A model generated the notes under the pieces. It was not told the origin of the DNA and searched no databases. It worked only from the letters and a program-made list of their open reading frames with translations. Both the position numbers and the translations under genes were made by a program. Below, one piece after another: positions 33,209 to 43,543 of a DNA stretch of 64,000 nucleotides (its first letter is position 1; each line of letters starts with the position of its first letter). Origin of the DNA: Poseidonia sp. (GTDB taxonomy: Archaea > Thermoplasmatota > Poseidoniia > Poseidoniales > Poseidoniaceae); NCBI GenBank assembly GCA_965661285.1, contig CBFIDD010000002.1, positions 192,001 through 256,000 of the forward strand. Reading direction: 5' to 3'.

Positions 33209-34027
33209 ATGGTCGGTATGGACAACAGTTCGCCACCTGTTCTTTTCGTGGTTGGCACGGCGGGCGCAGGAAAATCTTCGCTGGTTACATCTTTTCAACG
33301 CTGGTCTCGCTTTTTGGAGACCGAGGCCATTGCGGTGAACCTTGACCCGGGTGCTGAGCGCGTCCACTACGACGCCGAATTTGATGTTCGGGACCTCATC
33401 TCCTTGACCGAAGTGATGGACGAGTATGACCTCGGGCCCAACGGAGCTCAAATTCTCGCTGCGGACCTCTTGGCCGCTCAGGCCGGCGAAGTGGCCGATC
33501 AGCTCCACACGCTCTCGGGTGAAATCATGATCGTTGACACACCCGGACAGGTCGAACTGTTCGCTTTCCGCGAAGCCAGCAACCACTTGATTGAAACCCT
33601 TGGTCGAGAGCAATCCGCCATCATTTACCTCTTCGACCCCATGCTGTCCCGCTCGCCGTCGGGATTCGTCTCACAAATGCTTCTCTCGTCCATCGTTGAG
33701 TTCCGCCTCGGCCTGCCAACGAAGAACTTCCTGTCGAAGGCCGACCTGCTGGAACCGGAAGAACTGGACCAAATCCTTGAATGGTCCGAGCGCCTTGAAA
33801 TTCTCGAGTTGGCACTCTATGACGAAGCAGGTGGTCAGCGAACCGAATTTGCCATCAACCAACTCCGTATGATGCAAGAGTTCTCTCAAGCCCCGGGACT
33901 CACCCCCCTGTCCTCAGAACTCGAAGAAGGACTGGCCGATATTCTGACGTTTGCACAGGCGCTGTTTGGAGGCATGAGCGATGCCCGTGATGGCTTTGCA
34001 GCCGACATTGAGCACGAAAAGAACTGA
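33209..34027 (+). CDS. GPN-loop GTPase (PAB0955 family)
   Basis: Motifs GTAGAGKS, NLDPG, LGPNGA, DTPGQVELF and SKAD. Confidence 0.93.
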   Translation: MVGMDNSSPPVLFVVGTAGAGKSSLVTSFQRWSRFLETEAIAVNLDPGAERVHYDAEFDVRDLISLTEVMDEYDLGPNGAQILAADLLAAQAGEVADQLHTLSGEIMIVDTPGQVELFAFREASNHLIETLGREQSAIIYLFDPMLSRSPSGFVSQMLLSSIVEFRLGLPTKNFLSKADLLEPEELDQILEWSERLEILELALYDEAGGQRTEFAINQLRMMQEFSQAPGLTPLSSELEEGLADILTFAQALFGGMSDARDGFAADIEHEKN

Positions 34028-34066
34028 GCGCACAACGCTTAGAAGCCGCCTTGTGGTGGTGATGCC

Positions 34067-35035
34067 ATGGTACAACACCTTCTGGCCATTGACGATGTTG
34101 ACGAAGACTTTGAAGGAATTCTCAAGTGGGCGATTGAATTCAAGCGACTATGGAAACAGGGCGATGATGTTGCGCTGAATTTCCTTCCCCTCGACACCCT
34201 CGCTATCGGTTCGATTTACGAAAAGCCATCCACGCGGACCCGTGTGTCGTTCGAAGTCGGCGTCCAGCGACTCGGTGGCAGTGCGCTGACGCTGCTCAAG
34301 AACGACATCCAACTCGGGAAATCAGAAACGGTTGGCGACACATCGCAGGTCCTTTCTCGGTTTTTGGGCGGCATGACCTACCGTTGCTTTGCTCATGCTG
34401 ATGTTGAGGAATTGGCGAAACACGCCACCGTGCCGGTCATCAATGCGCTCTCGGCCAAGCACCATCCCTGCCAAGCCGCTGCTGACTTGATGACCGTGAT
34501 GGAACACCACGACGACACGGAGGATTTGACCGTGGCGTGGGTGGGGGACGGCAACAACGTGCTGCACGATTTGATGTTGGCGTGTGCCATGCTCGGCATC
34601 AACATTCGATACGCCTGTCCTGAAGGATACGAACCTGCAGAGGATGTCGTGGAACGCACCAAGGCCTTTGCGAAGGCTAATGGAAGCGATGTCATGCACA
34701 CCACCGACCCCCTCGAAGCCGTGAAGGATGCGCATGTGGTCTACACCGATGTCTTCATTTCAATGGGCGAAGAACACATGACCGACAAAATGGAAGCCTT
34801 TGACGGCTACCAGGTGAACGAAGCCATGGTCGGCCACATGGACGAGGCGTGGTCGTTCATGCACTGCCTGCCTGCTCACCGAGGCGAGGAAGTCACCGAC
34901 TGGGTCATGGACCATGAACAGAGCATCGTCTTCGACCAAGCGGAAAACAGAATGTGGGCCCAAATGTCGCTCATGACCTACCTCATCAACCGCAGTGCGT
35001 GGGATGCGATGGGTGAATTCATGGGTCTGGTTTGA
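34067..35035 (+). CDS. argF: Ornithine carbamoyltransferase
   Basis: Motifs KPSTRTR, HPCQ, GDGNN, SMG, HCLP and QAENR. Confidence 0.94.
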   Translation: MVQHLLAIDDVDEDFEGILKWAIEFKRLWKQGDDVALNFLPLDTLAIGSIYEKPSTRTRVSFEVGVQRLGGSALTLLKNDIQLGKSETVGDTSQVLSRFLGGMTYRCFAHADVEELAKHATVPVINALSAKHHPCQAAADLMTVMEHHDDTEDLTVAWVGDGNNVLHDLMLACAMLGINIRYACPEGYEPAEDVVERTKAFAKANGSDVMHTTDPLEAVKDAHVVYTDVFISMGEEHMTDKMEAFDGYQVNEAMVGHMDEAWSFMHCLPAHRGEEVTDWVMDHEQSIVFDQAENRMWAQMSLMTYLINRSAWDAMGEFMGLV

Positions 35036-35914
35036 TCACAATGCCCCAGCCGCAACGAAGCTGATGAGACCCAGCAGCATGGCGATTCGAATACGACCGG
35101 CGACCAAGACGTCATCCCCTTTATAGAGCGGACCGTTGAGCGTGATGAGGGTCAAAATCGCCGGGGTTTGAAGCACCAGTTGACCAAACGCGAAGGGGCC
35201 GCGCCAGAACGGCATGTAAAGGCACACGAGAGCACCCATGATAACGACATAGGCAGCCATCCGGACTTTCTCCTTCCCGTACGTCATCGGCAAGGTTTCA
35301 CGACTGCCTTCATCGGCTTCCATGTCCATGCAATCCTTCACCATCTCTCGAGCAAGGTTGGTCAAGAACACGACACCAAAGACCCACCAAATCACGGGTT
35401 CTGTGATACCACCGACGCCAGAGGCCCCGTAGAGAATGACCGCAGCCACCAGCAGGGAGATGACGATGTTTCCAGATAACCCCTGGTTTTTTGTTGCTGG
35501 CCCGTGGTCGTAGGTCACCATGAGAACCACGGCAAGAATGTAAATCAGCACCGTAGGTAGGTAGACACCGACTTCTGGCTCCACCACCAGCAAGCCACCG
35601 ATATGGGCGAACACGCTCAAACCCCAGAGAAGTGAAGTGAAACCCTGTGCCTGCGAAAGGGTCAGCCGGCCGGAAGGAAGCGGACGTTGTGGGTGAGCCG
35701 TTTGGTCGAGGTCGGCATCTTTGATGTCGTTCATGGCGTTGCCAGCACCGGTAAAGAATACCACAGCGAGCGTGTGGAGGCCGACGGCGAGCCATGGAAA
35801 ATCTGCACCCTGCTCCATCAATGCAAAGTAAGCACCGAGGGGAACGGTCGCACCTGCGAGAACCAAGTTCTTCGGACGCATCAATTCAATGAACGCACCG
35901 AGGCGACCTGCCAT
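35036..35914 (-). CDS. Digeranylgeranylglyceryl phosphate synthase (UbiA family)
   Basis: Motifs RPKN, NDIKDADLD..HPQRPLPSG and REMVKDCMDMEAD. Confidence 0.85.
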   Translation of the reverse strand: MAGRLGAFIELMRPKNLVLAGATVPLGAYFALMEQGADFPWLAVGLHTLAVVFFTGAGNAMNDIKDADLDQTAHPQRPLPSGRLTLSQAQGFTSLLWGLSVFAHIGGLLVVEPEVGVYLPTVLIYILAVVLMVTYDHGPATKNQGLSGNIVISLLVAAVILYGASGVGGITEPVIWWVFGVVFLTNLAREMVKDCMDMEADEGSRETLPMTYGKEKVRMAAYVVIMGALVCLYMPFWRGPFAFGQLVLQTPAILTLITLNGPLYKGDDVLVAGRIRIAMLLGLISFVAAGAL

Positions 35915-35953
35915 GGTTGAGTGCAGGCGTCTTTGATTCTTGATTCCTTGGAC

Positions 35954-36193
35954 TCAAGCGGCGGCCATGGACCAAACACAGACACGCATTCGGAACCCAC
36001 CGACATCGGTACCCTCGTCAAAGCCCACTTTGACAAAGCGACGGTCTCGAGCGAGGACGTTGCCGAGCTGGTTCATCGTTGCACCCCATCGAAAACGACG
36101 GTTGACGTGGTCGAGGATGACGGTGGTGTTGGCCTCACCCACCTCGCTGAGGAAGGAGAGGATTTCGGAGCGAAGTCGCTTGGTCCGACTCAT
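35954..36193 (-). CDS. Small winged-helix DNA-binding protein (DUF3860-like)
   Basis: Pattern RTKRLR...NTT.I.DHVN...WGATMNQLGNVLARD. Confidence 0.75.
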   Translation of the reverse strand: MSRTKRLRSEILSFLSEVGEANTTVILDHVNRRFRWGATMNQLGNVLARDRRFVKVGFDEGTDVGGFRMRVCVWSMAAA

Positions 36194-36450
36194 CAGGCCT
36201 CACCTCGGACGATGCGCTGAAGCAGGGATTGCATGCTTCGGGAGAGCGGCGCCTTTGTGGAGGCGGCACCCGGGCCTGCAATCGGCTGCCAACCGATCTG
36301 CTCGGTCTTCTGTGGCAGACGTCCCGTAGCGTGGGCGAGGTGTGTTTGACTGTTCTTCACCCAGGACGGCTCGGTGTGTACGGTGGTCGAAGCGACCATG
36401 TCAGCAAAGCACAGATGTTCGGACAGATTTGGTTGTTCCATGGTTGCCAT
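36193..36450 (-). CDS. Hypothetical protein coupled to the DNA-binding protein gene
   Basis: TGATG stop/start overlap at 36193 and a GGAGG SD-like sequence near its 3' end. Confidence 0.6.
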   Translation of the reverse strand: MATMEQPNLSEHLCFADMVASTTVHTEPSWVKNSQTHLAHATGRLPQKTEQIGWQPIAGPGAASTKAPLSRSMQSLLQRIVRGEA

Positions 36451-36636
36451 TCCGTGGCGGTGGTATATCAACCGACGAAAGAGGGGTCGGGTTGAAGAAA
36501 AACGCCATGTCAAGCGCAGGCCCTCGTTTTTCAGTTTTCAATTTTAGTTAAAGTGAATGAAAATCTTCCCTTGACAGCCCACACGAAAGCATGGCGTGAT
36601 GGCTAAATAGGAAAGGCCAGTCCGAAAGCCTACCAC

Positions 36637-36709
36637 GCTCGTATAGTGTAGTGGCCCATCATGAAGGACTCTCATTCCTTCGACCCGGGTTCAAATCCCG
36701 GTACGAGCA
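36637..36709 (+). tRNA. tRNA-Glu(CTC)
   Basis: GCTCGTATAGTGTAGTGGCCCATCATGAAGGACTCTCATTCCTTCGACCCGGGTTCAAATCCCGGTACGAGCA folds as a cloverleaf. A TAAATA box lies about 30 nt upstream. Confidence 0.96.
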
Positions 36710-36765
36710 CTCCGATCTTACGTACGATTGTACGGACGGAACCATTGAGTTTCCCGGTACGAGCA
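36696..36765 (+). repeat. 70-bp exact repeat copy 1 (core + 42-nt spacer + core)
   Basis: Identical to 39261-39330. Confidence 0.95.
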
Positions 36766-36918
36766 TCCATCTGACGTCAAAACTTTTGACCTGCGTCAGT
36801 GCACATCAAATACTTTCTTTTATGCTCATTGGACCTCATTTTGATAGCACATTAAGTGCTCTGCTGAATTGTACAGAGATTAGGCCATCATTGAAAACTC
36901 ACAATCCGGCTTAGGACC

Positions 36919-37183
36919 TTGGAAGAATCAGAAGCACGGAGAATCGCTGCTGAAACACAAGGGCACTCAACCCTGAACAAATTCATTCGAACTGTTGTTA
37001 ACTCGGCTATTCTTGATTTTGATGGGAACGGGGATGAATTCGAGGTGCAAACTCAACAAAAATTCGATGAAAAAATGCATCGAATGAAAGGGCAACGTTT
37101 CCGTTCGTTTGATAGAATATGTTGAGTCCCATGACCCATATGAATAGGTTAAATGGGTTGTCGGCGAAACGGGTGACATTGAT
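36919..37183 (+). pseudogene. Probable decayed ORF fragment in cassette 1
   Basis: 68-aa ORF with only a TTG start; a protein-like continuation in another frame is broken by stops. Confidence 0.3.
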
Positions 37184-37247
37184 TGATATGGTCGTTATAC
37201 AATCGTATACTGAGTGCATGAGCAGTCGGTGGAGAGTGTCCAAATTT

Positions 37248-38180
37248 TCAGAATTCCCAAGCGAATCCAGTTTTCTCTTCTGAATCCTTCCACAATCGAG
37301 TCATCGTCTCCTTCTCGTAAGCGTGGGCTTCCAACTGATTTTCTGCAACAGGACCAACCCAATCCAATGCTCCTGTAGGTCCGTACAGCGCTCGCTCTTG
37401 CAAGTCATTCGAAGTAGCACACATTAGTTGTGAGTATGCTCCTTTTTTGGCAGATTGCACTATTGGTAGAAGCACCATAATTCCCCAAATAAAACGTGTA
37501 ACCATACTTGCATTCGTCTTAATCAACGATGTTTTGGCAGCTCCTGGATGACAAACGAAGACTTTAGTTTCCTTTTTTGCGAGAGAGATTCTATCTTGTA
37601 ATTCATACGCAAACATCATCAGAGCAAGTTTGCTTTGACTGTAAGCGGTGTTTGAATTATACTTTTTATCCCAATTCATGTCTTCAAAATTGATTGTCTT
37701 CATTCCCATTTTATACCCTAAGCTGGAAACAACAACGATTCTGCCTTGATTTTTTTCGATTGAAGGGAAGAGCATTCCTGCCAACAAAAAGTGTCCGTAA
37801 TGATTTGTTCCTAGCTGTACCTCAAAACCATCAACTGTAAGAGTTCTTTTAGGCGTTTGAGCAATTGCGGCATTACAGATCAATACATCGATCTTTTGCT
37901 TCCTCTCAATCAGCACATTTGCAGCATCTCTTACCGACTCTAAATCTGACAAATCTAACTTTACAAATTTCAAGGGTTGATTTTCTGCAAGTTCGTTGTT
38001 AATCTCCTGCATGATTCGATTGGATTTTTGCTCATTCCTGTTCAACATCGTGACTTCTGCTCCCTTTGCAAGCAGGATTTTTATGGCCTCTAGTCCAATT
38101 CCTGAGCTGGCTCCGGTGATGACGACAGACTTGCCTTCTAGACTTTGAATTAAATCGGGAGTCCATCCACTTGATGCCAT
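37248..38180 (-). CDS. SDR oxidoreductase (retinol dehydrogenase/WWOX-like), AT-rich cargo
   Basis: Motifs TGASSGIG, LDLSDLESV, CNAAI, TNHYGHF, YSQSK and HPG. Codon usage differs visibly from the host genes. Confidence 0.9.
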   Translation of the reverse strand: MASSGWTPDLIQSLEGKSVVITGASSGIGLEAIKILLAKGAEVTMLNRNEQKSNRIMQEINNELAENQPLKFVKLDLSDLESVRDAANVLIERKQKIDVLICNAAIAQTPKRTLTVDGFEVQLGTNHYGHFLLAGMLFPSIEKNQGRIVVVSSLGYKMGMKTINFEDMNWDKKYNSNTAYSQSKLALMMFAYELQDRISLAKKETKVFVCHPGAAKTSLIKTNASMVTRFIWGIMVLLPIVQSAKKGAYSQLMCATSNDLQERALYGPTGALDWVGPVAENQLEAHAYEKETMTRLWKDSEEKTGFAWEF

Positions 38181-38359
38181 AATGCTCCGTCTTTGGGTTA
38201 GTTCATATTGGTTACGGACAATAGGTCAGGCTTCTCTTTTCGGCAAATTCATCATAGAAGATTATCATTGCGAATAAGAATTGAAATAGGTCCATGACAG
38301 GCATTACCCTTTGATTGGTTGCCTCAAAGGTCAATTTTGAAGTCAATCAGATGTGGGTA

Positions 38360-38373
38360 TCCCGGTACGAGCA
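38360..38373 (+). repeat. att-like copy of the tRNA-Glu 3' end
   Basis: TCCCGGTACGAGCA; a 15-nt match including the preceding A. Confidence 0.92.
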
Positions 38374-38421
38374 TTCTCTATATTAAAAAAATTAAATTTT
38401 ACAGTTCGCTAAACCCATGAC

Positions 38422-39204
38422 ATGGAATGGCTTGAAAGAGCAGGTTGGCATTACGACAAAGATTCGAATTCAATAGAACAATCAGAATTTACTCACCCTC
38501 TTCCAATGACTATTGTATTTTGTTTCTTTTTTACCCCAATTCCGTTTATGTCCGTTGTGTTTGTAAATGGACCGATCTTTTTTTTGTTTGTGAGCTTAGC
38601 CGTATGTGCGCTCAGTTTGGCTTGCTTATTGGGGTACATCCTCACAATCAAAGGAACTGTCAGGAGAATTTCTCTGCATGACTTATCTTACACGGTGATG
38701 AAGCGAAACAGGCGAACGCTCGAAAATTCCAAGATCAACACCCTCGAATCAACGGATGGATTCATCCACCAGAACCTCGAGGTTATTGTCGTTGAGTATG
38801 AAGTACTCACAGGATCTGAAGGAGGTAGTGGCTACGTTACAACTTACCAGGTACGATTGGTCGAAAAAAGACTGGTCGGAGATGAACGCTACTTCACCCG
38901 TCTTGGAAAACGTTTTTTGAAGGCAGACCAGAGCACTCTGCCTCCAGAACTGCAAGTGGAACCTTGGCGTTTGGTTAATAATCACGGGAATAAACAAATG
39001 AAGTGGAATTATGGAAACGATCCAGCATACGATGTGCAGAGGATGCTGGTCTTGAGGGCGAAAAATAAACAAGATGCATTGGAATTAAGCGACCATTTTC
39101 GAGAATTTTTCATTGAAGGTGGTTGGCAGAAACTCACTGAACAGATTCCTCCTGTGATTTCAGATGAAGCAACCAATGATGGAAACGAACCGTTTTGGGT
39201 ATGA
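38422..39204 (+). CDS. Cassette membrane protein, paralog A
   Basis: Two N-terminal TM helices and a soluble domain; colinear with 39380-40159. Confidence 0.82.
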   Translation: MEWLERAGWHYDKDSNSIEQSEFTHPLPMTIVFCFFFTPIPFMSVVFVNGPIFFLFVSLAVCALSLACLLGYILTIKGTVRRISLHDLSYTVMKRNRRTLENSKINTLESTDGFIHQNLEVIVVEYEVLTGSEGGSGYVTTYQVRLVEKRLVGDERYFTRLGKRFLKADQSTLPPELQVEPWRLVNNHGNKQMKWNYGNDPAYDVQRMLVLRAKNKQDALELSDHFREFFIEGGWQKLTEQIPPVISDEATNDGNEPFWV

Positions 39205-39260
39205 ACTCAAACATTGAGGTCCTACTCAAAGACGCCACACCATGGTATTTGCAGATAGTT

Positions 39261-39330
39261 TCCCGGTACGAGCACTCCGATCTTACGTACGATTGTACGG
39301 ACGGAACCATTGAGTTTCCCGGTACGAGCA
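39261..39330 (+). repeat. 70-bp exact repeat copy 2 (core + 42-nt spacer + core)
   Basis: Identical to 36696-36765. Confidence 0.95.
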
Positions 39331-39379
39331 TTCTCTATATTGAAAAAAATTAAAATTTACAGTTCGCTAAACTCATGAC

Positions 39380-40159
39380 ATGGATTGGTTGGAGGAAGCG
39401 GGTTGGTGTTACGACCCAGAATCTCATTCAATTGAACAGGTTGAGTACACCAGTCCTAGTTTGGGCCTCTTTCTATTTGTCGTGTTCGCGATTGGAATTT
39501 CGGTCATATTCTTCGAAACTTTATACAGCCCTGATTTTTTGGTTTTTCTTCTTGTTTACGCATCATTGTTGGGTTTGATGGCGCTTGCGGGACTCCACAT
39601 AACAAATGTGGGGTGGGTGAAAAGAATTGCACTATCTGATTTGTCCTACTCTGTCATGAAACGTAACAAGCGAACGCTCGAAAATTCAAAGATTGCTACC
39701 CTCGAATCGACGGATGGATTCACGCATGAGAACCTGGAGGTCATTGTCGTTGAGTATGAACGAAAGAATGAAAGTGAAGGCCCTGCGTACTACACCTTCT
39801 ATCAAGTCCGGTTGGTTGAAAAACGACTGGTTGGAAATGAGAGATACTTCACCCACCTTAAAAAACGTTTCATGGAGGCAGATAAGAGCACGTTGCCCCC
39901 CGAACTGCAAGCGGACGCTTGGGGTTTGGCCTACAACCACGGAAAAATAAGGGAGAAGTTGTATCACGGAAAGAATCCGGCCTACGATGTGCAGAGGATG
40001 TTGGTGTTGAATGCGAAAAACAAAACACATGCACTCGAATTGAGCGAGCGTTTTCGAGAATTTTTCATTGAAGGTGGTTGGAAAGAACTCACTCGACAGC
40101 CCTCACCTGCAATCTCAAGTGATGTTGCCGAGGAGGAAAACCGGCCGTTCTGGCAATGA
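39380..40159 (+). CDS. Cassette membrane protein, paralog B
   Basis: Shares RTLENSKI.TLESTDGF, YQVRLVEKRLVG, PAYDVQRMLVL and FREFFIEGGW with paralog A. Confidence 0.82.
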   Translation: MDWLEEAGWCYDPESHSIEQVEYTSPSLGLFLFVVFAIGISVIFFETLYSPDFLVFLLVYASLLGLMALAGLHITNVGWVKRIALSDLSYSVMKRNKRTLENSKIATLESTDGFTHENLEVIVVEYERKNESEGPAYYTFYQVRLVEKRLVGNERYFTHLKKRFMEADKSTLPPELQADAWGLAYNHGKIREKLYHGKNPAYDVQRMLVLNAKNKTHALELSERFREFFIEGGWKELTRQPSPAISSDVAEEENRPFWQ

Positions 40160-40357
40160 TCTTGACATTGATATGTTGCTCAACAAACACGCACCATGGT
40201 ATTTGCACGTCGCTCATCGGCACGGGGACTATTCTATAGAATGGAATTCACTCATCCTGGTCCATCCATCTATGTTGCACGAAGATGTATCCTGCCTTGG
40301 GATGCGTCAAGCATCTACGGAGGTCTTCTTTATTGGATTGAGCGTTGAGGAGACATC

Positions 40358-40999
40358 ATGCCCGGCCCACTCCGCTCGCTCGTCTATGTCCACACCGCCC
40401 TTCGAAACGAACTCAATCAACTCGCTGCCCTCGCTCACGATGTTGCAGCAGGAGAAAACACGCTTGGAACGCTCAAAGAACGCTTTGACTGGGCAACCTA
40501 TGCCCTCCACTACCACGCTGTTGGTGAAGACGCCGCCCTGTTCCCTGCTGTTGAAGCAAAGCACCCGGGTGTGGCCATGACCTTTGACGATGACCACCGT
40601 ACCGATGACGCACTGGTGGAGGAAATGAAATCCCTCCTCGAGGCAGGAGGCGACGGTGAAACGCTCCAAAGGATTGCACGATGCGCCGACCAATTGGCCG
40701 ACCGCGCCTCCCTCCACATGGACAAGGAAGAGCGGTTGCTCGTCCCCTTCGTTGAGGAGCACTTCGGCATGGAGGAGCAGGGCGCCATTCTTGGCGGCAT
40801 GATGCAGGCGTTCCCTCCTGAATTTATGCTCAAAGGCGTTCCGTGGATTTTCTCGCACCTCGATGAAACCCTCCGCATCTCCTACGCCACCGCCCTCAAG
40901 GGCGCCATGCCACCCGAACCCTTTGGCATGCACATGAACAACGTTGAACAGCAACTCGGACCCGAGGAATGGGCACCCATTGCGGCTGCCATTGCGTGA
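40358..40999 (+). CDS. Hemerythrin/HHE domain protein
   Basis: Motifs HTALR, HYHAVGED..LFP, DDH and HMDKEE..L.P; GAGGAG SD. Confidence 0.88.
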   Translation: MPGPLRSLVYVHTALRNELNQLAALAHDVAAGENTLGTLKERFDWATYALHYHAVGEDAALFPAVEAKHPGVAMTFDDDHRTDDALVEEMKSLLEAGGDGETLQRIARCADQLADRASLHMDKEERLLVPFVEEHFGMEEQGAILGGMMQAFPPEFMLKGVPWIFSHLDETLRISYATALKGAMPPEPFGMHMNNVEQQLGPEEWAPIAAAIA

Positions 41000-41029
41000 T
41001 TAAACCGAGTCCGCAGACACGCAGCGCGG

Positions 41030-41557
41030 TTAGCCAAGGATTTGGTGGCCGACCCAAAGCAAGAGAATGGAAAGAACGGTCAACGCCCGTTGCATGTGAA
41101 GGAGTCGGGCACCCCTCCTGAACTCCCTTGGTGGCCATTTCCACTGCATCATGTACCCGGTGATAACCAAGACCCACATGGCCCCGGTCCCCACCCAGAG
41201 GGTCCAGTGCCACTCGAGGACATAGCCGTGGACGGTTCCAATAATGGCCGCAAACAGGCCGATCCAATTGTGTGCTTTCATGAAGCGTCGGTTAAAGACA
41301 CCCAATTGCCGTTTGAAGGCCTTGGGTTCCCGGTCGAGCAGTTCCGGCCCGTTGGCTCTGAGCCACTTGAACAACGGCTTCCATGCCACGATGGAAACCG
41401 TTCCCACAAAGAGGTAGAGGGCGACATCGCCCAAGCCTTCTGCTTCGAGACCGAAAACCGTGGGTTCGTCATCCTCATCTTCGTCGTCCTCCTCTGCGTC
41501 ATGATCGTTGCCAAGTGCGGTGTGAAGACTCAGAAGAAAGGCGAAAAACAACAACAC
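41030..41557 (-). CDS. Membrane protein with four intramembrane His residues (possible di-haem cytochrome b-like)
   Basis: KAHNWIG, TVHGY, LLHMQ and VGHQ in TM helices; acidic N-terminal stretch. Start is uncertain. Confidence 0.65.
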   Translation of the reverse strand: MLLFFAFLLSLHTALGNDHDAEEDDEDEDDEPTVFGLEAEGLGDVALYLFVGTVSIVAWKPLFKWLRANGPELLDREPKAFKRQLGVFNRRFMKAHNWIGLFAAIIGTVHGYVLEWHWTLWVGTGAMWVLVITGYMMQWKWPPREFRRGARLLHMQRALTVLSILLLWVGHQILG

Positions 41558-41579
41558 AACCAGGTGGCTTCGCTTTATC

Positions 41580-41915
41580 TCAATCCCTCACTTCTGCCCG
41601 CTGCCTCGCCTGCTCAACCCGCTGCCAAGGACCGCCGTTGTGGGCTGGAATGCCCGCTTGTTTCAACATCTTCGCAGCCTTTCCAGACCGCATACCGCTG
41701 GCGCAGCACGTCACGATGGTTGTTCGCTGTTTTTTGAGGGCGGCGATTTTGGAGGAAAGGGAGGCCAATGGAATGTGCCGTGATTGCTCGCCGTGGGCGC
41801 TGTTGTATTCGCCCGTTGTGCGAACATCAACGATGATAGCGCCCTCCTCAAGCAAGGTTTGGGTGTCGGGTTTGTTGGAAAATAGGAGTCCACGAAGCCA
41901 AGAAAACATCATCAC
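41580..41915 (-). CDS. Rhodanese-like domain protein
   Basis: Motifs IVDVRTTGEY, HIPL and CCASGMRS. Confidence 0.9.
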   Translation of the reverse strand: MMMFSWLRGLLFSNKPDTQTLLEEGAIIVDVRTTGEYNSAHGEQSRHIPLASLSSKIAALKKQRTTIVTCCASGMRSGKAAKMLKQAGIPAHNGGPWQRVEQARQRAEVRD

Positions 41916-41918
41916 ACC

Positions 41919-42308
41919 TCACGCATAACTGACGGGCATGCCTGCGTCCTTCCAGCCGTTGATGCCGCTTTCCAGTTCCATAAGGTTGGTGAAGCCCATG
42001 TCGAGAAGTGTTTGGGCGGCGTCTTGAGAGCGGTTTCCACTACGGCAGTAGAGCAAAATAAGCGCGTCCTTGTCTTCCGGGAGCTCGTTTTCTCGAGTTT
42101 CCAACTCGGTGTGGGGAATCAAGGTGGCGTTTTCCAAGTGCCCGTCCTGTTCCCACTCAGCCGTGGTTCGAACGTCGAGAAGAAATCCGTCGTTGTCGGC
42201 CTTGATGGCCTCGTCAAAGGCGGTGACATCCACGCGTTCCCACTGTCCATCGTTGGAGATGCAGCCGGACAAGAGCAGGAAGATCAGCAGGGGAAGCCAT
42301 CTTTTCAT
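41919..42308 (-). CDS. Rhodanese-like lipoprotein
   Basis: Lipobox LLSGC; motifs LLDVRT..EW, GHL and YCRSGNRS. Confidence 0.88.
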   Translation of the reverse strand: MKRWLPLLIFLLLSGCISNDGQWERVDVTAFDEAIKADNDGFLLDVRTTAEWEQDGHLENATLIPHTELETRENELPEDKDALILLYCRSGNRSQDAAQTLLDMGFTNLMELESGINGWKDAGMPVSYA

Positions 42309-42384
42309 GCCCTGCAATTCAAGACCTCGGCACAAATACCTGCCGAGGGTATTCCATCCAAAAACAGGAAAATATTCAAAAAAA

Positions 42385-43392
42385 ATGCAACACATCAACC
42401 TTATCGTGAGGGCTTTCCGACAAATGACTGTCCTTTTCACCATGAGTTGTGTTCTTTTCTGCATACCTGTTACGGGACAGGCCGTGAACTACAGCGTAGA
42501 AGTCGAATGTGACGATGAGACAATCGAGGTAGAATCGGAGCCGGGAAACATTGTCACTGGGTACTTGGACTGCACGTTCACCAACCCTTCAATCCATCTT
42601 GAAAAAATTCAGTACCAGGTAAACTCCGACTATGGTGGGGTGACATTGATTCCTAGACAGGGAACTCTTGATTTGAATGGTGGTGAATCTAAAATTCTCA
42701 CAATTGGAATAACACCCAACGAGGGCCTGTGGACAGGAAATTATGAGTTAACTGTTTATGGAACGGTGGTAGAAGTATGGGGTGGACCGCCACCATCCTA
42801 CGAAACAGATATGGATACAGGGACCTATTACGTATCACCGTATTTGGACTTCGATCCGGTGAGTTGCTGGTCATCCTTTTCAGACGACACATACAGTTTA
42901 GTTGATGTTGGGTGTTGGGTAGAAAACCGGGGAAACACGCATGATGAATACTCGTTGGTTGTTCCTCAATCAGCCATAGATGCAATGGAGTCATTCGGGT
43001 TTAAATCGACACCAGCACTCTCGCAATCGGTTGATTGGTTCACTTATGACATACACCATCCTATGATTGAAGGTGGGTTTGTGTTTGAAGGAGACACATC
43101 AGAATGGAGAGACAATGACACCCTCTATTCGCTGAATGAGGTGATATTGGTGGAATTGCACAGCCAAGGTGCTGAGTCCGAGGGAAGCCCGCTGATCGAA
43201 CAAGCCAGTGTTCCAATTCAGCTGGCCATAGAAAAAGAAATCGTTGAGGACCAATATGCCCCCGAGGGTTTCCTTTTCGCACCCGGGATGATCGAACTGC
43301 TTGTTGTCCTCTTGGTAGCGGTCGCAGTGGCACGGCCTCATCAGGGAGATGAGAACGGTGACATTCGCAACCTGCTCACAGACCGTACGTGA
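42385..43392 (+). CDS. Secreted surface protein with a C-terminal sorting/TM signal (choice-of-anchor T-like)
   Basis: Signal peptide, acidic beta-rich body and an APG + TM + R terminus; lower GC than the flanks. The family name is tentative. Confidence 0.7.
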   Translation: MQHINLIVRAFRQMTVLFTMSCVLFCIPVTGQAVNYSVEVECDDETIEVESEPGNIVTGYLDCTFTNPSIHLEKIQYQVNSDYGGVTLIPRQGTLDLNGGESKILTIGITPNEGLWTGNYELTVYGTVVEVWGGPPPSYETDMDTGTYYVSPYLDFDPVSCWSSFSDDTYSLVDVGCWVENRGNTHDEYSLVVPQSAIDAMESFGFKSTPALSQSVDWFTYDIHHPMIEGGFVFEGDTSEWRDNDTLYSLNEVILVELHSQGAESEGSPLIEQASVPIQLAIEKEIVEDQYAPEGFLFAPGMIELLVVLLVAVAVARPHQGDENGDIRNLLTDRT

Positions 43393-43543
43393 TGGTGTGC
43401 TCGAGGCACATCTTCCACATCTCTCGACCCGTCTGGCTTTCGTAAGCATCAAAGAACAGACAACCGTTATGGAACGCCCAGAAACTTCGGGCAGGGTTGG
43501 AGGATGGGTCGGCCGTGGTGTCGTTCGGGTCGCCGTTCAGCAT
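43376..43543 (-). CDS. 55-aa ORF resembling one ELWxxDGT-type propeller blade (possible remnant)
   Basis: SSNP...NGCLFFDA...TGREMWK; TGATG overlap with the upstream gene. Confidence 0.45.
   Translation of the reverse strand: MLNGDPNDTTADPSSNPARSFWAFHNGCLFFDAYESQTGREMWKMCLEHTITYGL

Follow-up and report, generated by a model that had tools for sequence, protein, structure and literature searches.

What has accumulated behind a transfer RNA (tRNA) gene in a marine archaeon, and by what means, is the question raised by a 64,000-nucleotide stretch of the Poseidonia sp. assembly GCA_965661285.1 (contig CBFIDD010000002.1, positions 192,001 to 256,000), which we call the window. An initial annotation, made from the sequence alone, had described an integron-like array of small cassettes at the 3′ end of a tRNA-Glu gene and proposed that a recombinase encoded elsewhere inserts them one after another. 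The host lineage, the Marine Group II archaea or Poseidoniales, is uncultured, abundant, and genetically poorly understood. We consider it likely that the array is a tRNA-Glu-anchored stack of cassettes that depend on an integrase supplied in trans, and that they come from a family of small tyrosine-integrase elements.

An array bounded by copies of the tRNA-Glu 3′ end

ARAGORN called a tRNA-Glu(ctc) gene at 36637-36710 on the forward strand, and a count by hand placed the discriminator A at 36709. The 3′-terminal 14 nt of this tRNA-Glu(CUC), TCCCGGTACGAGCA at 36696-36709, constitute the core. An exact pattern search located five copies, starting at 36696, 36752, 38360, 39261, and 39317, all on the forward strand and spaced by 56, 1608, 901, and 56, in agreement with the initial annotation. 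No further copy was returned by an exact 14-mer search of the rest of the 1,977,581-base genome, and none of 100 shuffled controls reached five matches at ≤2 mismatches (mean 0.37). The array is also distinct in composition, with a GC content of 0.36-0.48 from about 36700 to 40250 compared to 0.52-0.61 in the flanks. An intact tRNA at one end, with direct repeats of its 3′ part bounding the units, is the arrangement of a tRNA-anchored additive island.

We name the units between cores S (present twice), A, B1, and B2 (Table 1); ahead of each core that closes a unit lies an arm belonging to one of three classes described below. The module core-S-core forms a 71-nt exact repeat (36696-36766 and 39261-39331) with a period of 2565 bp. 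B2, previously given as at least ~890 bp, closes about 883 nt on, at a decayed sixth core (TCATCGGCACGGGGA). The spacing between this core and its arm palindrome is canonical, and the hexamer CTATAG occurs exactly +6 past it (40234-40239), which confirms the register and puts the following hemerythrin gene in cassette position. Beyond 40230 no further core was recognized at 3 mismatches, the 12 matches being near chance (mean 5.4), and extension of the array past this point is only probable. As annotated, units carry zero or one gene, except that A possibly holds two open reading frames (ORFs), one of 310 aa for a short-chain dehydrogenase/reductase (SDR) and one of 68 aa. A tblastn search of 34001-43000 found no recombinase, again as annotated.

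Variable content and shared cassettes among relatives

To place the array among its relatives, we surveyed 201 genomes of the family, with copy counts read by hand from the table of core matches. The core was present in 110 genomes, and 38 had 2-9 copies, nearly always on one contig and in one orientation. Several relatives' contigs start or end at a core, as would be expected of a repeat at which assemblies break. We retrieved 40 multi-copy loci and added 80 metagenome loci. In the retrieved loci, the upstream flank was syntenic (OTC-like, UbiA-like, DUF3860, a 106-aa ORF, and the tRNA), while the content between cores varied by species, even inside a genus. The comparison of cassette content and order that had been suggested as a check therefore found both to differ.

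The 117 complete core-to-core units formed 87 clusters with medians of 1879 nt in length and 0.415 in GC. A single ORF of at least 60 aa was found in 51 clusters and two in 18. The ORF of single-ORF clusters lay on the reverse strand in 33 cases and on the forward strand in 18; in the window, the SDR gene of A is on the reverse strand and the genes of B1 and B2 are on the forward strand. Cargo assigned by Pfam included RCC1-repeat proteins of 1000-1200 aa; coiled-coil, beta-propeller, collagen-like, pentapeptide-repeat, and TPR proteins; hemerythrin; a C5 methylase paired with an Eco47II endonuclease; and a solute-binding protein, an amino-acid permease, and an S-adenosylmethionine (SAM) methyltransferase. 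Many ORFs had no family.

Cassettes shared between hosts were far more alike than the chromosomes around them. A hemerythrin cassette was 99.5% identical between two genera, compared to 73.7% for the upstream flank (18% alignable). The corresponding values were 97.6% vs. 72.1% for a pentapeptide cassette, 95.9% vs. 74.2% for a cassette of the family to which B1 and B2 belong (the B family), and 97.7% vs. 76.6% for a cassette of unit cluster U1. The block of identity spans core to core, and shared cassettes have different neighbors, as in the orders tRNA-U9-U10 and tRNA-U11-U12-U10. A syntenic locus with variable content, holding cassettes much more similar than their flanks, again conforms to an additive island. 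The window's own cassettes have been found elsewhere as well: an independent metagenome contig (L167) reads core-A-core-B1-core with 99% identity over 2530 nt (99.4% for A and 98.4% for B1), and there the pair stands behind a different cassette, itself ending in a class I arm.

Parts of the region are contained in 20 public runs from 12 studies, for which we used Logan k-mer contigs only. In every run the class I arm was joined to several upstream and downstream sequences; because k-mer contigs sum all organisms, this shows that the sequences exist in other backgrounds but says nothing of copy number. In runs X2, X4, and X5, joints whose sides are short (21-40 nt) are ambiguous, as they lie inside shared arms. 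In X5, a B1-like contig (748 nt, 38403-39150, 11 differences, 98.5%) had a depth of 319, compared to 27.7 for A and at most about 4 for this genome's flanks near the array (22.4 in the bin 35800-35993). This contrast suggests that the B1 cassette was far commoner in that sample than the window's host.

Architecture of the recombination sites

We measured arm conservation in 41 loci selected by the core alone. There, 48 of the 54 assessable non-tRNA cores were preceded by an arm, which was of class I in 32 cases, class II in 12, and class III in 4. All classes share one design, an 8-bp palindrome 14 nt ahead of the core. The class I arm reads ACCATGGT, ATTTGCAGATAGTW, then core (116 unique sites, with a 23-nt consensus); class II reads GTCCGGAC, GGAACTTGCGAGAT, then core; and class III reads TGACGTCA, 14 nt, then core. 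The arm-plus-core junction occurred in at least 119 metagenome contigs and in 23 of 301 genomes of the order, all of which belong to three genera of a single family. For the 80 metagenome loci, the retrieval pattern included 9 nt of the class I arm.

Left ends are conserved too. CTATAG was found in the first 45 nt of 34 of the 87 unit clusters vs. 15 of 4070 internal background windows, and only at offsets of +6 (16 clusters) or +17 (18 clusters). Such ends are common to units of unrelated content. The view of the units as non-autonomous cassettes bounded by tRNA-derived attachment (att) cores is supported.

The window contains examples of all three classes. Cassette A has TGACGTCA at 36772-36779, +7 from the core, as its left end and TGAAGTCA plus 14 nt (38338-38359) as its right end, the same end type that flanks the integrase-bearing unit of L147. 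The B2 arm survives as a remnant, ACCATGGTATTTGCA at 40193-40207. In S, the arm consists of the imperfect palindrome GTACGGAC, 14 nt, and the core. Units of 42 nt and S type also occur in L041, L053, L057, and L061, and an empty unit of 27 nt in L125, L162, and L166 is the class I counterpart.

Integrases in rare larger units

In genome G079 (locus L062), the unit adjoining the tRNA is 6082 nt long and encodes a 323-aa tyrosine integrase (PF00589, E 5.6e-19; PHROG integrase). Its gene order is a 185-aa ORF, the integrase, two small ORFs, and a PLD/SNF2-helicase pair that looks like cargo or defense. Close homologues (E below 1e-60) were present in 7 of the 201 family genomes, all outside this genus, and further homologues were found in metagenome loci L155, L141, L147, and L146. 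Integrase-bearing units measure 5.4-6.1 kb, with integrases of 313-325 aa, and 6 of the 8 directly follow the tRNA. The accompanying ORFs of 172-185, about 270, and about 90 aa had no family match.

Four complete integrase units have matching ends. Those with the 323-325-aa type (L062, L155, and L141) start with core, CTAAAT, and ACCATGGTAT and finish in a class I arm. The unit with the 313-aa type (L147; 38% identical) starts with core, TTCCTT, and TGACGTCA and finishes in a class III arm. Judging from these ends, arm classes appear to go with integrase subfamilies.

The class I integrase elements (L062:4500-4700, L155, and L141) also contain two extra TACCATGGTA palindromes, ~80-107 nt apart, between the ~90-aa ORF and the cargo gene (unit coordinates about 2510-2640). 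Besides being part of the arm, TACCATGGTA may also serve as an operator for an element-encoded DNA-binding protein.

The recombinase predicted to reside elsewhere thus exists as a cognate integrase tied to the same att site, in rare larger units of other genomes; none was found in this one, so its action on the window array could only be in trans. The search for a stand-alone tyrosine recombinase in this genome did return one protein, the sole PF00589 match, but this is a 361-aa XerA-like protein on another contig (C1), 27% identical to the element integrase.

More distant relatives may extend the family. A profile of 7 integrase sequences matched 14 IMG/VR loci at 27-36% identity, four of them with a tRNA (Ser, His, Leu, and Leu) and none with tRNA-Glu. 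In L217, L218, L220, and L222, the integrases are 32-36% identical to the element integrases, and in three of these loci a tRNA lies ~600 nt upstream, which suggests that elements targeting tRNAs with a like layout form a broader family.

A trans-acting model and its alternatives

The anatomy of the array, the conserved sites, the variable content of a syntenic locus, diverged hosts that share near-identical cassettes, and relatives that carry the integrase with matching ends were all observed. From them we infer that the element integrase is the catalyst, that it acts in trans through circular intermediates, and in what order the units arrived. Poseidoniales elements of 5.4-6.1 kb, comprising a 172-185-aa ORF, a 313-325-aa tyrosine integrase, two more small ORFs, and one cargo gene, would insert site-specifically into the terminal 14 nt of tRNA-Glu(CUC) and regenerate the tRNA. 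Their composite site would combine the 8-bp palindrome, 14 nt, the 14-nt core, and a short left-end motif, in three arm classes. Hundreds of shorter, mostly one-gene units have the same arm and core without the integrase, which would move these cassettes in trans, either singly or as multi-unit circles produced by recombination between any two cores. Units would accumulate 3′ of the tRNA, with older ones displaced distally and decaying.

In the window, the stack reads tRNA, S (class II), A (class III, SDR), B1 (class I), S, B2 (class I), decayed core, hemerythrin. It could have arisen in two steps: a circle [S-core-A-core-B1-core] formed, and it then entered, at the tRNA core, a chromosome of the order tRNA-S-core-B2. 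On the simplest reading, the exact 2565-bp period suggests arrival of S-A-B1 as one composite block. The proposal of one-by-one insertion changes in this respect, and the two 56-bp units are empty att units that cannot be independent insertions. The proposed age order, newest nearest the tRNA, fared better. In 7 of 8 tRNA-anchored arrays with mismatched cores, such copies were the most distal; in the window, the distal core is decayed, and host-like GC is seen in the genes that follow. The pattern is consistent with insertion next to the tRNA and with decay that grows farther from it.

The alternative that survives best is a graveyard, in which every unit is what remains in place of its own full-size element after loss of the integrase, with no independent or trans movement. 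Integrase fragments do lie beside a 1210-aa cargo gene in L115, and units of 885-889 nt in L057_u3 (which has a class II right arm) and L116 bear the left end of the class III integrase element. A review on the tyrosine recombinases of archaea also credits integrase-less integrated elements to loss of the integrase after integration (PMC8371274). However, one-gene units with exact core-to-core bounds are 96-99.5% identical in hosts whose flanks are ~73% identical, and they stand among different neighbors. Moreover, an integrase occurs in only 4 of the 87 unit clusters, compared to the 51 with a single ORF, and random deletions would not keep left-end motifs at fixed offsets. We therefore regard a pure graveyard as unlikely.

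Local duplication, whether through slippage or through unequal homologous recombination at this locus, could account for B1 and B2, which are paralogues (59% aa identity; 78-82% DNA identity over three stretches), and for the exact doubling of the 71-nt module. However, the 71-nt repeat is 100% identical and B1/B2 only ~80%, so a single old duplication cannot explain both. The copy of B1 next to A in L167, the B-family cassettes in other genera (L059, L060, and L063), and the lack of a paralogue of unit A here also argue for insertion, leaving duplication improbable.

An assembly artifact, in which short-read assembly chained strain variants through the repeats, was a natural concern, since such repeats break assemblies and Logan contigs, too, stop at every core. 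Yet in run X1 the depth was even across the upstream flank (13.7), A (12.5), B1 (14.6), B2 (13.0), and the downstream flank (13.6), and the 96-nt repeat contig at 36630-36725 reached 23.5, about twice the units. In a strain mixture the depth would be divided among the units; its flatness indicates about one copy of each unit per genome. In addition, no assembler uses a k-mer as short as the 14-nt core, which means that reads must contain each junction; L167 shows core-A-core-B1-core independently, and arrays recur in the 38 multi-copy genomes. Mis-assembly is thus very improbable. Least credible of all is a true integron or the action of the host XerA recombinase, because despite the cassette-array-like layout and the one XerA-like protein, no intI adjoins the array, cassette genes run in both directions, the sites combine a tRNA-derived core with sequence-conserved arms, the XerA-like protein is divergent and on another contig, and element integrases co-occur with the arms.

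Several observations nevertheless weigh against the trans-acting model. No element-type integrase was found in this genome, although at 93% completeness a copy could be missed. Among 154 loci, no contig showed circular or tandem redundancy, in a search of contigs and not of raw reads, and matching flanks around two cores were seen at no locus except the window's own 71-nt repeat. Viral contigs gave no match to the class I or class II arm-plus-core and no close relative of the L062 integrase. The link between integrase subfamily and arm class has only 3 + 1 complete units behind it, and because their retrieval pattern holds the class I arm, the metagenome loci over-represent class I and are alone no proof of arm conservation. 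The decayed and hybrid integrase units imply that in-situ decay contributes. Finally, X1 is possibly the sample behind the genome, in which case its flat depth is not independent.

Even so, the trans-acting model remains our preferred reading. A bolder version is possible, although we incline slightly against it: Poseidoniales might possess a functional counterpart of the integron on a tRNA gene, with one-gene cassettes and composite sites of 36-50 nt, rare integrases supplied in trans that excise and re-insert each cassette, three arm classes corresponding to three integrase subfamilies, and S units as docking or by-product sites. If so, the cassette pool would be a main route of gene exchange between genera of these abundant ocean archaea.

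Features of the array, its neighbors, and other tRNA genes

Table 1. Coordinates of array features, neighboring genes, and short units at other tRNA genes (window positions unless a contig of genome G000 is given)
Feature	Position	Strand	Basis or remark
tRNA-Glu(CUC), anchor; core copy 1 = 36696-36709	36637..36709	+	ARAGORN, sequence, pattern search
S, "empty" class II unit, 42 nt	36710..36751	+	left end and right arm only
Core copy 2	36752..36765	+	pattern search
Cassette A, 1594 nt, class III ends	36766..38359	+	sequence; end comparison
Small ORF in cassette A, 68 aa, TTG start	36919..37125	+	no significant Pfam match; 97% aa identity in L167
Short-chain dehydrogenase/reductase, 310 aa, cargo of cassette A	37248..38180	-	Pfam adh_short, E 1.4e-31
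Core copy 3	38360..38373	+	pattern search
Cassette B1, 887 nt	38374..39260	+	perfect class I right arm ACCATGGTATTTGCAGATAGTT at 39239-39260
B1 gene, 260 aa, no known family	38422..39204	+	N-terminal hydrophobic stretch seen by eye
Core copy 4	39261..39274	+	pattern search
S, copy two, identical to first	39275..39316	+	within 71-nt exact repeat
Core copy 5	39317..39330	+	pattern search
Cassette B2	39331..40213	+	gene 39380-40159, 259 aa; half-decayed class I arm
Decayed core copy 6, TCATCGGCACGGGGA	40214..40228	+	12/15 positions match, one indel
Hemerythrin gene, 213 aa, cassette position	40358..40999	+	Pfam
Two ORFs, rhodanese-like by eye: 41580-41915 (111 aa), 41919-42464 (181 aa)	41580..42464	-	tblastn to U1
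tRNA-Leu(CAA) units	G000:C1:479900-480112	-	
tRNA-Leu(CAG) units	C5:158900-159132	-	
tRNA-Leu(TAG) units	C5:164250-164405	-	
tRNA-Val(CAC) units	C6:117350-117612	-	
tRNA-Ala(GGC) units	C2:448100-448270	+	

The frame of the small ORF in cassette A is open from the stop at 36892 and has no ATG, GTG, or TTG start ahead of 36919. It begins KLTIRL, followed by two helices, and resembles a ribbon-helix-helix protein by eye only.

The products of B1 and B2 may be membrane proteins of no family, given the hydrophobic stretch seen by eye. Searches of Pfam, PHROGs, PADLOC, and PDB profiles gave no match that would point to a function. Homologues fall into 27 clusters that are unnamed or "hypothetical," and existing names point to Poseidoniales or Thermoplasmatota. 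By sequence, this appears to be a cassette gene family limited to Poseidoniales.

Beyond the sixth core, the hemerythrin gene is probably an old cassette with host-like GC. Its homologues in L058 and L059 are core-flanked cassettes (85-87% aa identical), and alignment with these cassette forms revealed no recognizable distal arm or core in the window's hemerythrin region. The rhodanese-like ORFs match unit cluster U1 (L137, L163, L173, and L116) with 57% and 82% aa identity by tblastn. Elsewhere, U1 is an 887-nt core-flanked cassette; around 41580-42464, no cores were found, even at 3 mismatches. These ORFs may be fossil cassettes. More generally, the hemerythrin and rhodanese-like genes beyond the array could be fossils, or else the cassettes found elsewhere derive from them. 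A second GC dip (0.44-0.47) occurs at 42300-43400, together with a 440-aa ORF (42070-43392, forward strand) that has a hydrophobic C-terminal end.

A search for the pattern at other tRNAs had also been suggested as a check. One or two short units lie directly behind several further tRNA genes of this genome, all outside the window: tRNA-Leu(CAA), Leu(CAG), Leu(TAG), Val(CAC), and Ala(GGC). Here, kb-scale cassettes occur at tRNA-Glu(CUC) only. The short units end in a 12-26-nt copy of their own tRNA 3′ end, with periods of 67-95 nt at the Leu and Val genes, and some have a small hairpin and TTGAGTGA ahead of the copy, in which they resemble S. The short units may represent empty att units belonging to sister elements with those tRNAs as targets.

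The only resolvase-family serine recombinase of the genome (311 aa, G000:C3:265609-266544, forward strand; L215:1327-2262) was considered as an array recombinase and set aside, as no link to the array was seen. It abuts a 366-aa ORF on the reverse strand (L215:2259-3359) that resembles a type I restriction specificity subunit by eye, and the two may form an invertible or shuffling hsdS arrangement.

Significance and comparison with known systems

The tRNA-Glu locus is a defined, widespread exchange site with recognizable recombination sites and a candidate integrase. Its cassette pool is very diverse, with surface-type repeat proteins, a restriction-modification pair, hemerythrin, transporters, and many unknowns, and near-identical cassettes cross genus boundaries. 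The array explains assembly breaks at tRNA-Glu and offers a marker for mining the flexible genome of Poseidoniales. The arm plus core, the tRNA-Glu 3′ end, and the integrase are substrates for a recombination assay and possibly a genetic tool.

The closest kin of the array are tRNA-anchored additive islands, tycheposons, and cis-mobilizable elements (CIMEs), rather than integrons. An integron combines the integrase IntI, its sites attI and attC, and a large, diverse pool of small, mostly one-gene cassettes, each with a recombination site, all served by one tyrosine recombinase. The Poseidoniales array likewise piles up small cassettes, most of them with one gene and each with a recombination site at its end; it, too, draws on a large and diverse pool and would depend on one tyrosine recombinase. 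However, integrons have intI beside the array with attI and the promoter Pc, and their mostly co-oriented cassettes share that common promoter. Here, the array has no adjoining IntI gene and is anchored on a tRNA 3′ end instead of attI, and genes face both directions, so the logic of a common promoter does not apply. The attC sites are imperfect inverted repeats conserved in structure and variable in sequence, while the Poseidoniales sites, which we compared as sequences, appear conserved in sequence. The integron analogy thus describes how the array works, not what it belongs to.

In CIMEs and the accretion-mobilization of streptococcal integrative and conjugative elements (ICEs), att-flanked units without recombination genes stand in tandem with an autonomous element able to excise the composite. 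Cassettes A and B1 have this character, as A has L147-like class III ends and B1 an L062-like class I arm, and neither has a recombinase. Unlike CIMEs, which belong to bacterial conjugative systems, the Poseidoniales array has no known transfer machinery.

From bacteria, cassette islands anchored on tRNAs have been described before (PMC4898812; bioRxiv 10.1101/2020.12.28.424599). As portrayed for Alteromonas and other marine bacteria, additive flexible genomic islands are similarly site-directed hotspots at tRNAs, with content that varies among close strains and near-identical cassettes in diverged hosts (PMC4898812). The Poseidoniales array differs from that portrayal in its archaeal host, its mostly single-gene units of 0.4-4 kb, the 22-nt conserved arm at nearly every unit, and its empty units (27 or 42 nt). 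The tycheposons of Prochlorococcus, another streamlined ocean microbe, are described as integrase-carrying cargo elements at tRNA genes, with neighbors separated only by partial tRNAs, newcomers that push older elements inward, degenerate remnants, extra partial tRNAs, and elements much rarer than islands (bioRxiv 10.1101/2020.12.28.424599). Compared to that account, the Poseidoniales elements have no recognized replication module and are dominated by integrase-less one-gene units.

In archaea, tyrosine-recombinase elements are reported to re-use one integration site and so form arrays (PMC6563490, PMC8371274), and integrase-bearing Charybdis elements have been placed beside Poseidoniales tRNA genes (bioRxiv 10.1101/2025.08.03.668216). 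What these reports describe are whole elements or proviruses rather than one-gene cassettes arrayed with shared arms, and in their gene content the Poseidoniales integrase units show none of the methyltransferases described for Charybdis. We found no description of such arrays in Poseidoniales in the literature, although supplementary tables on Charybdis or Poseidoniales viruses may list the loci. The dominance of integrase-less one-gene units, the arms at almost every unit, the three arm classes, and the empty units appear to be new to this lineage and uncommon overall.

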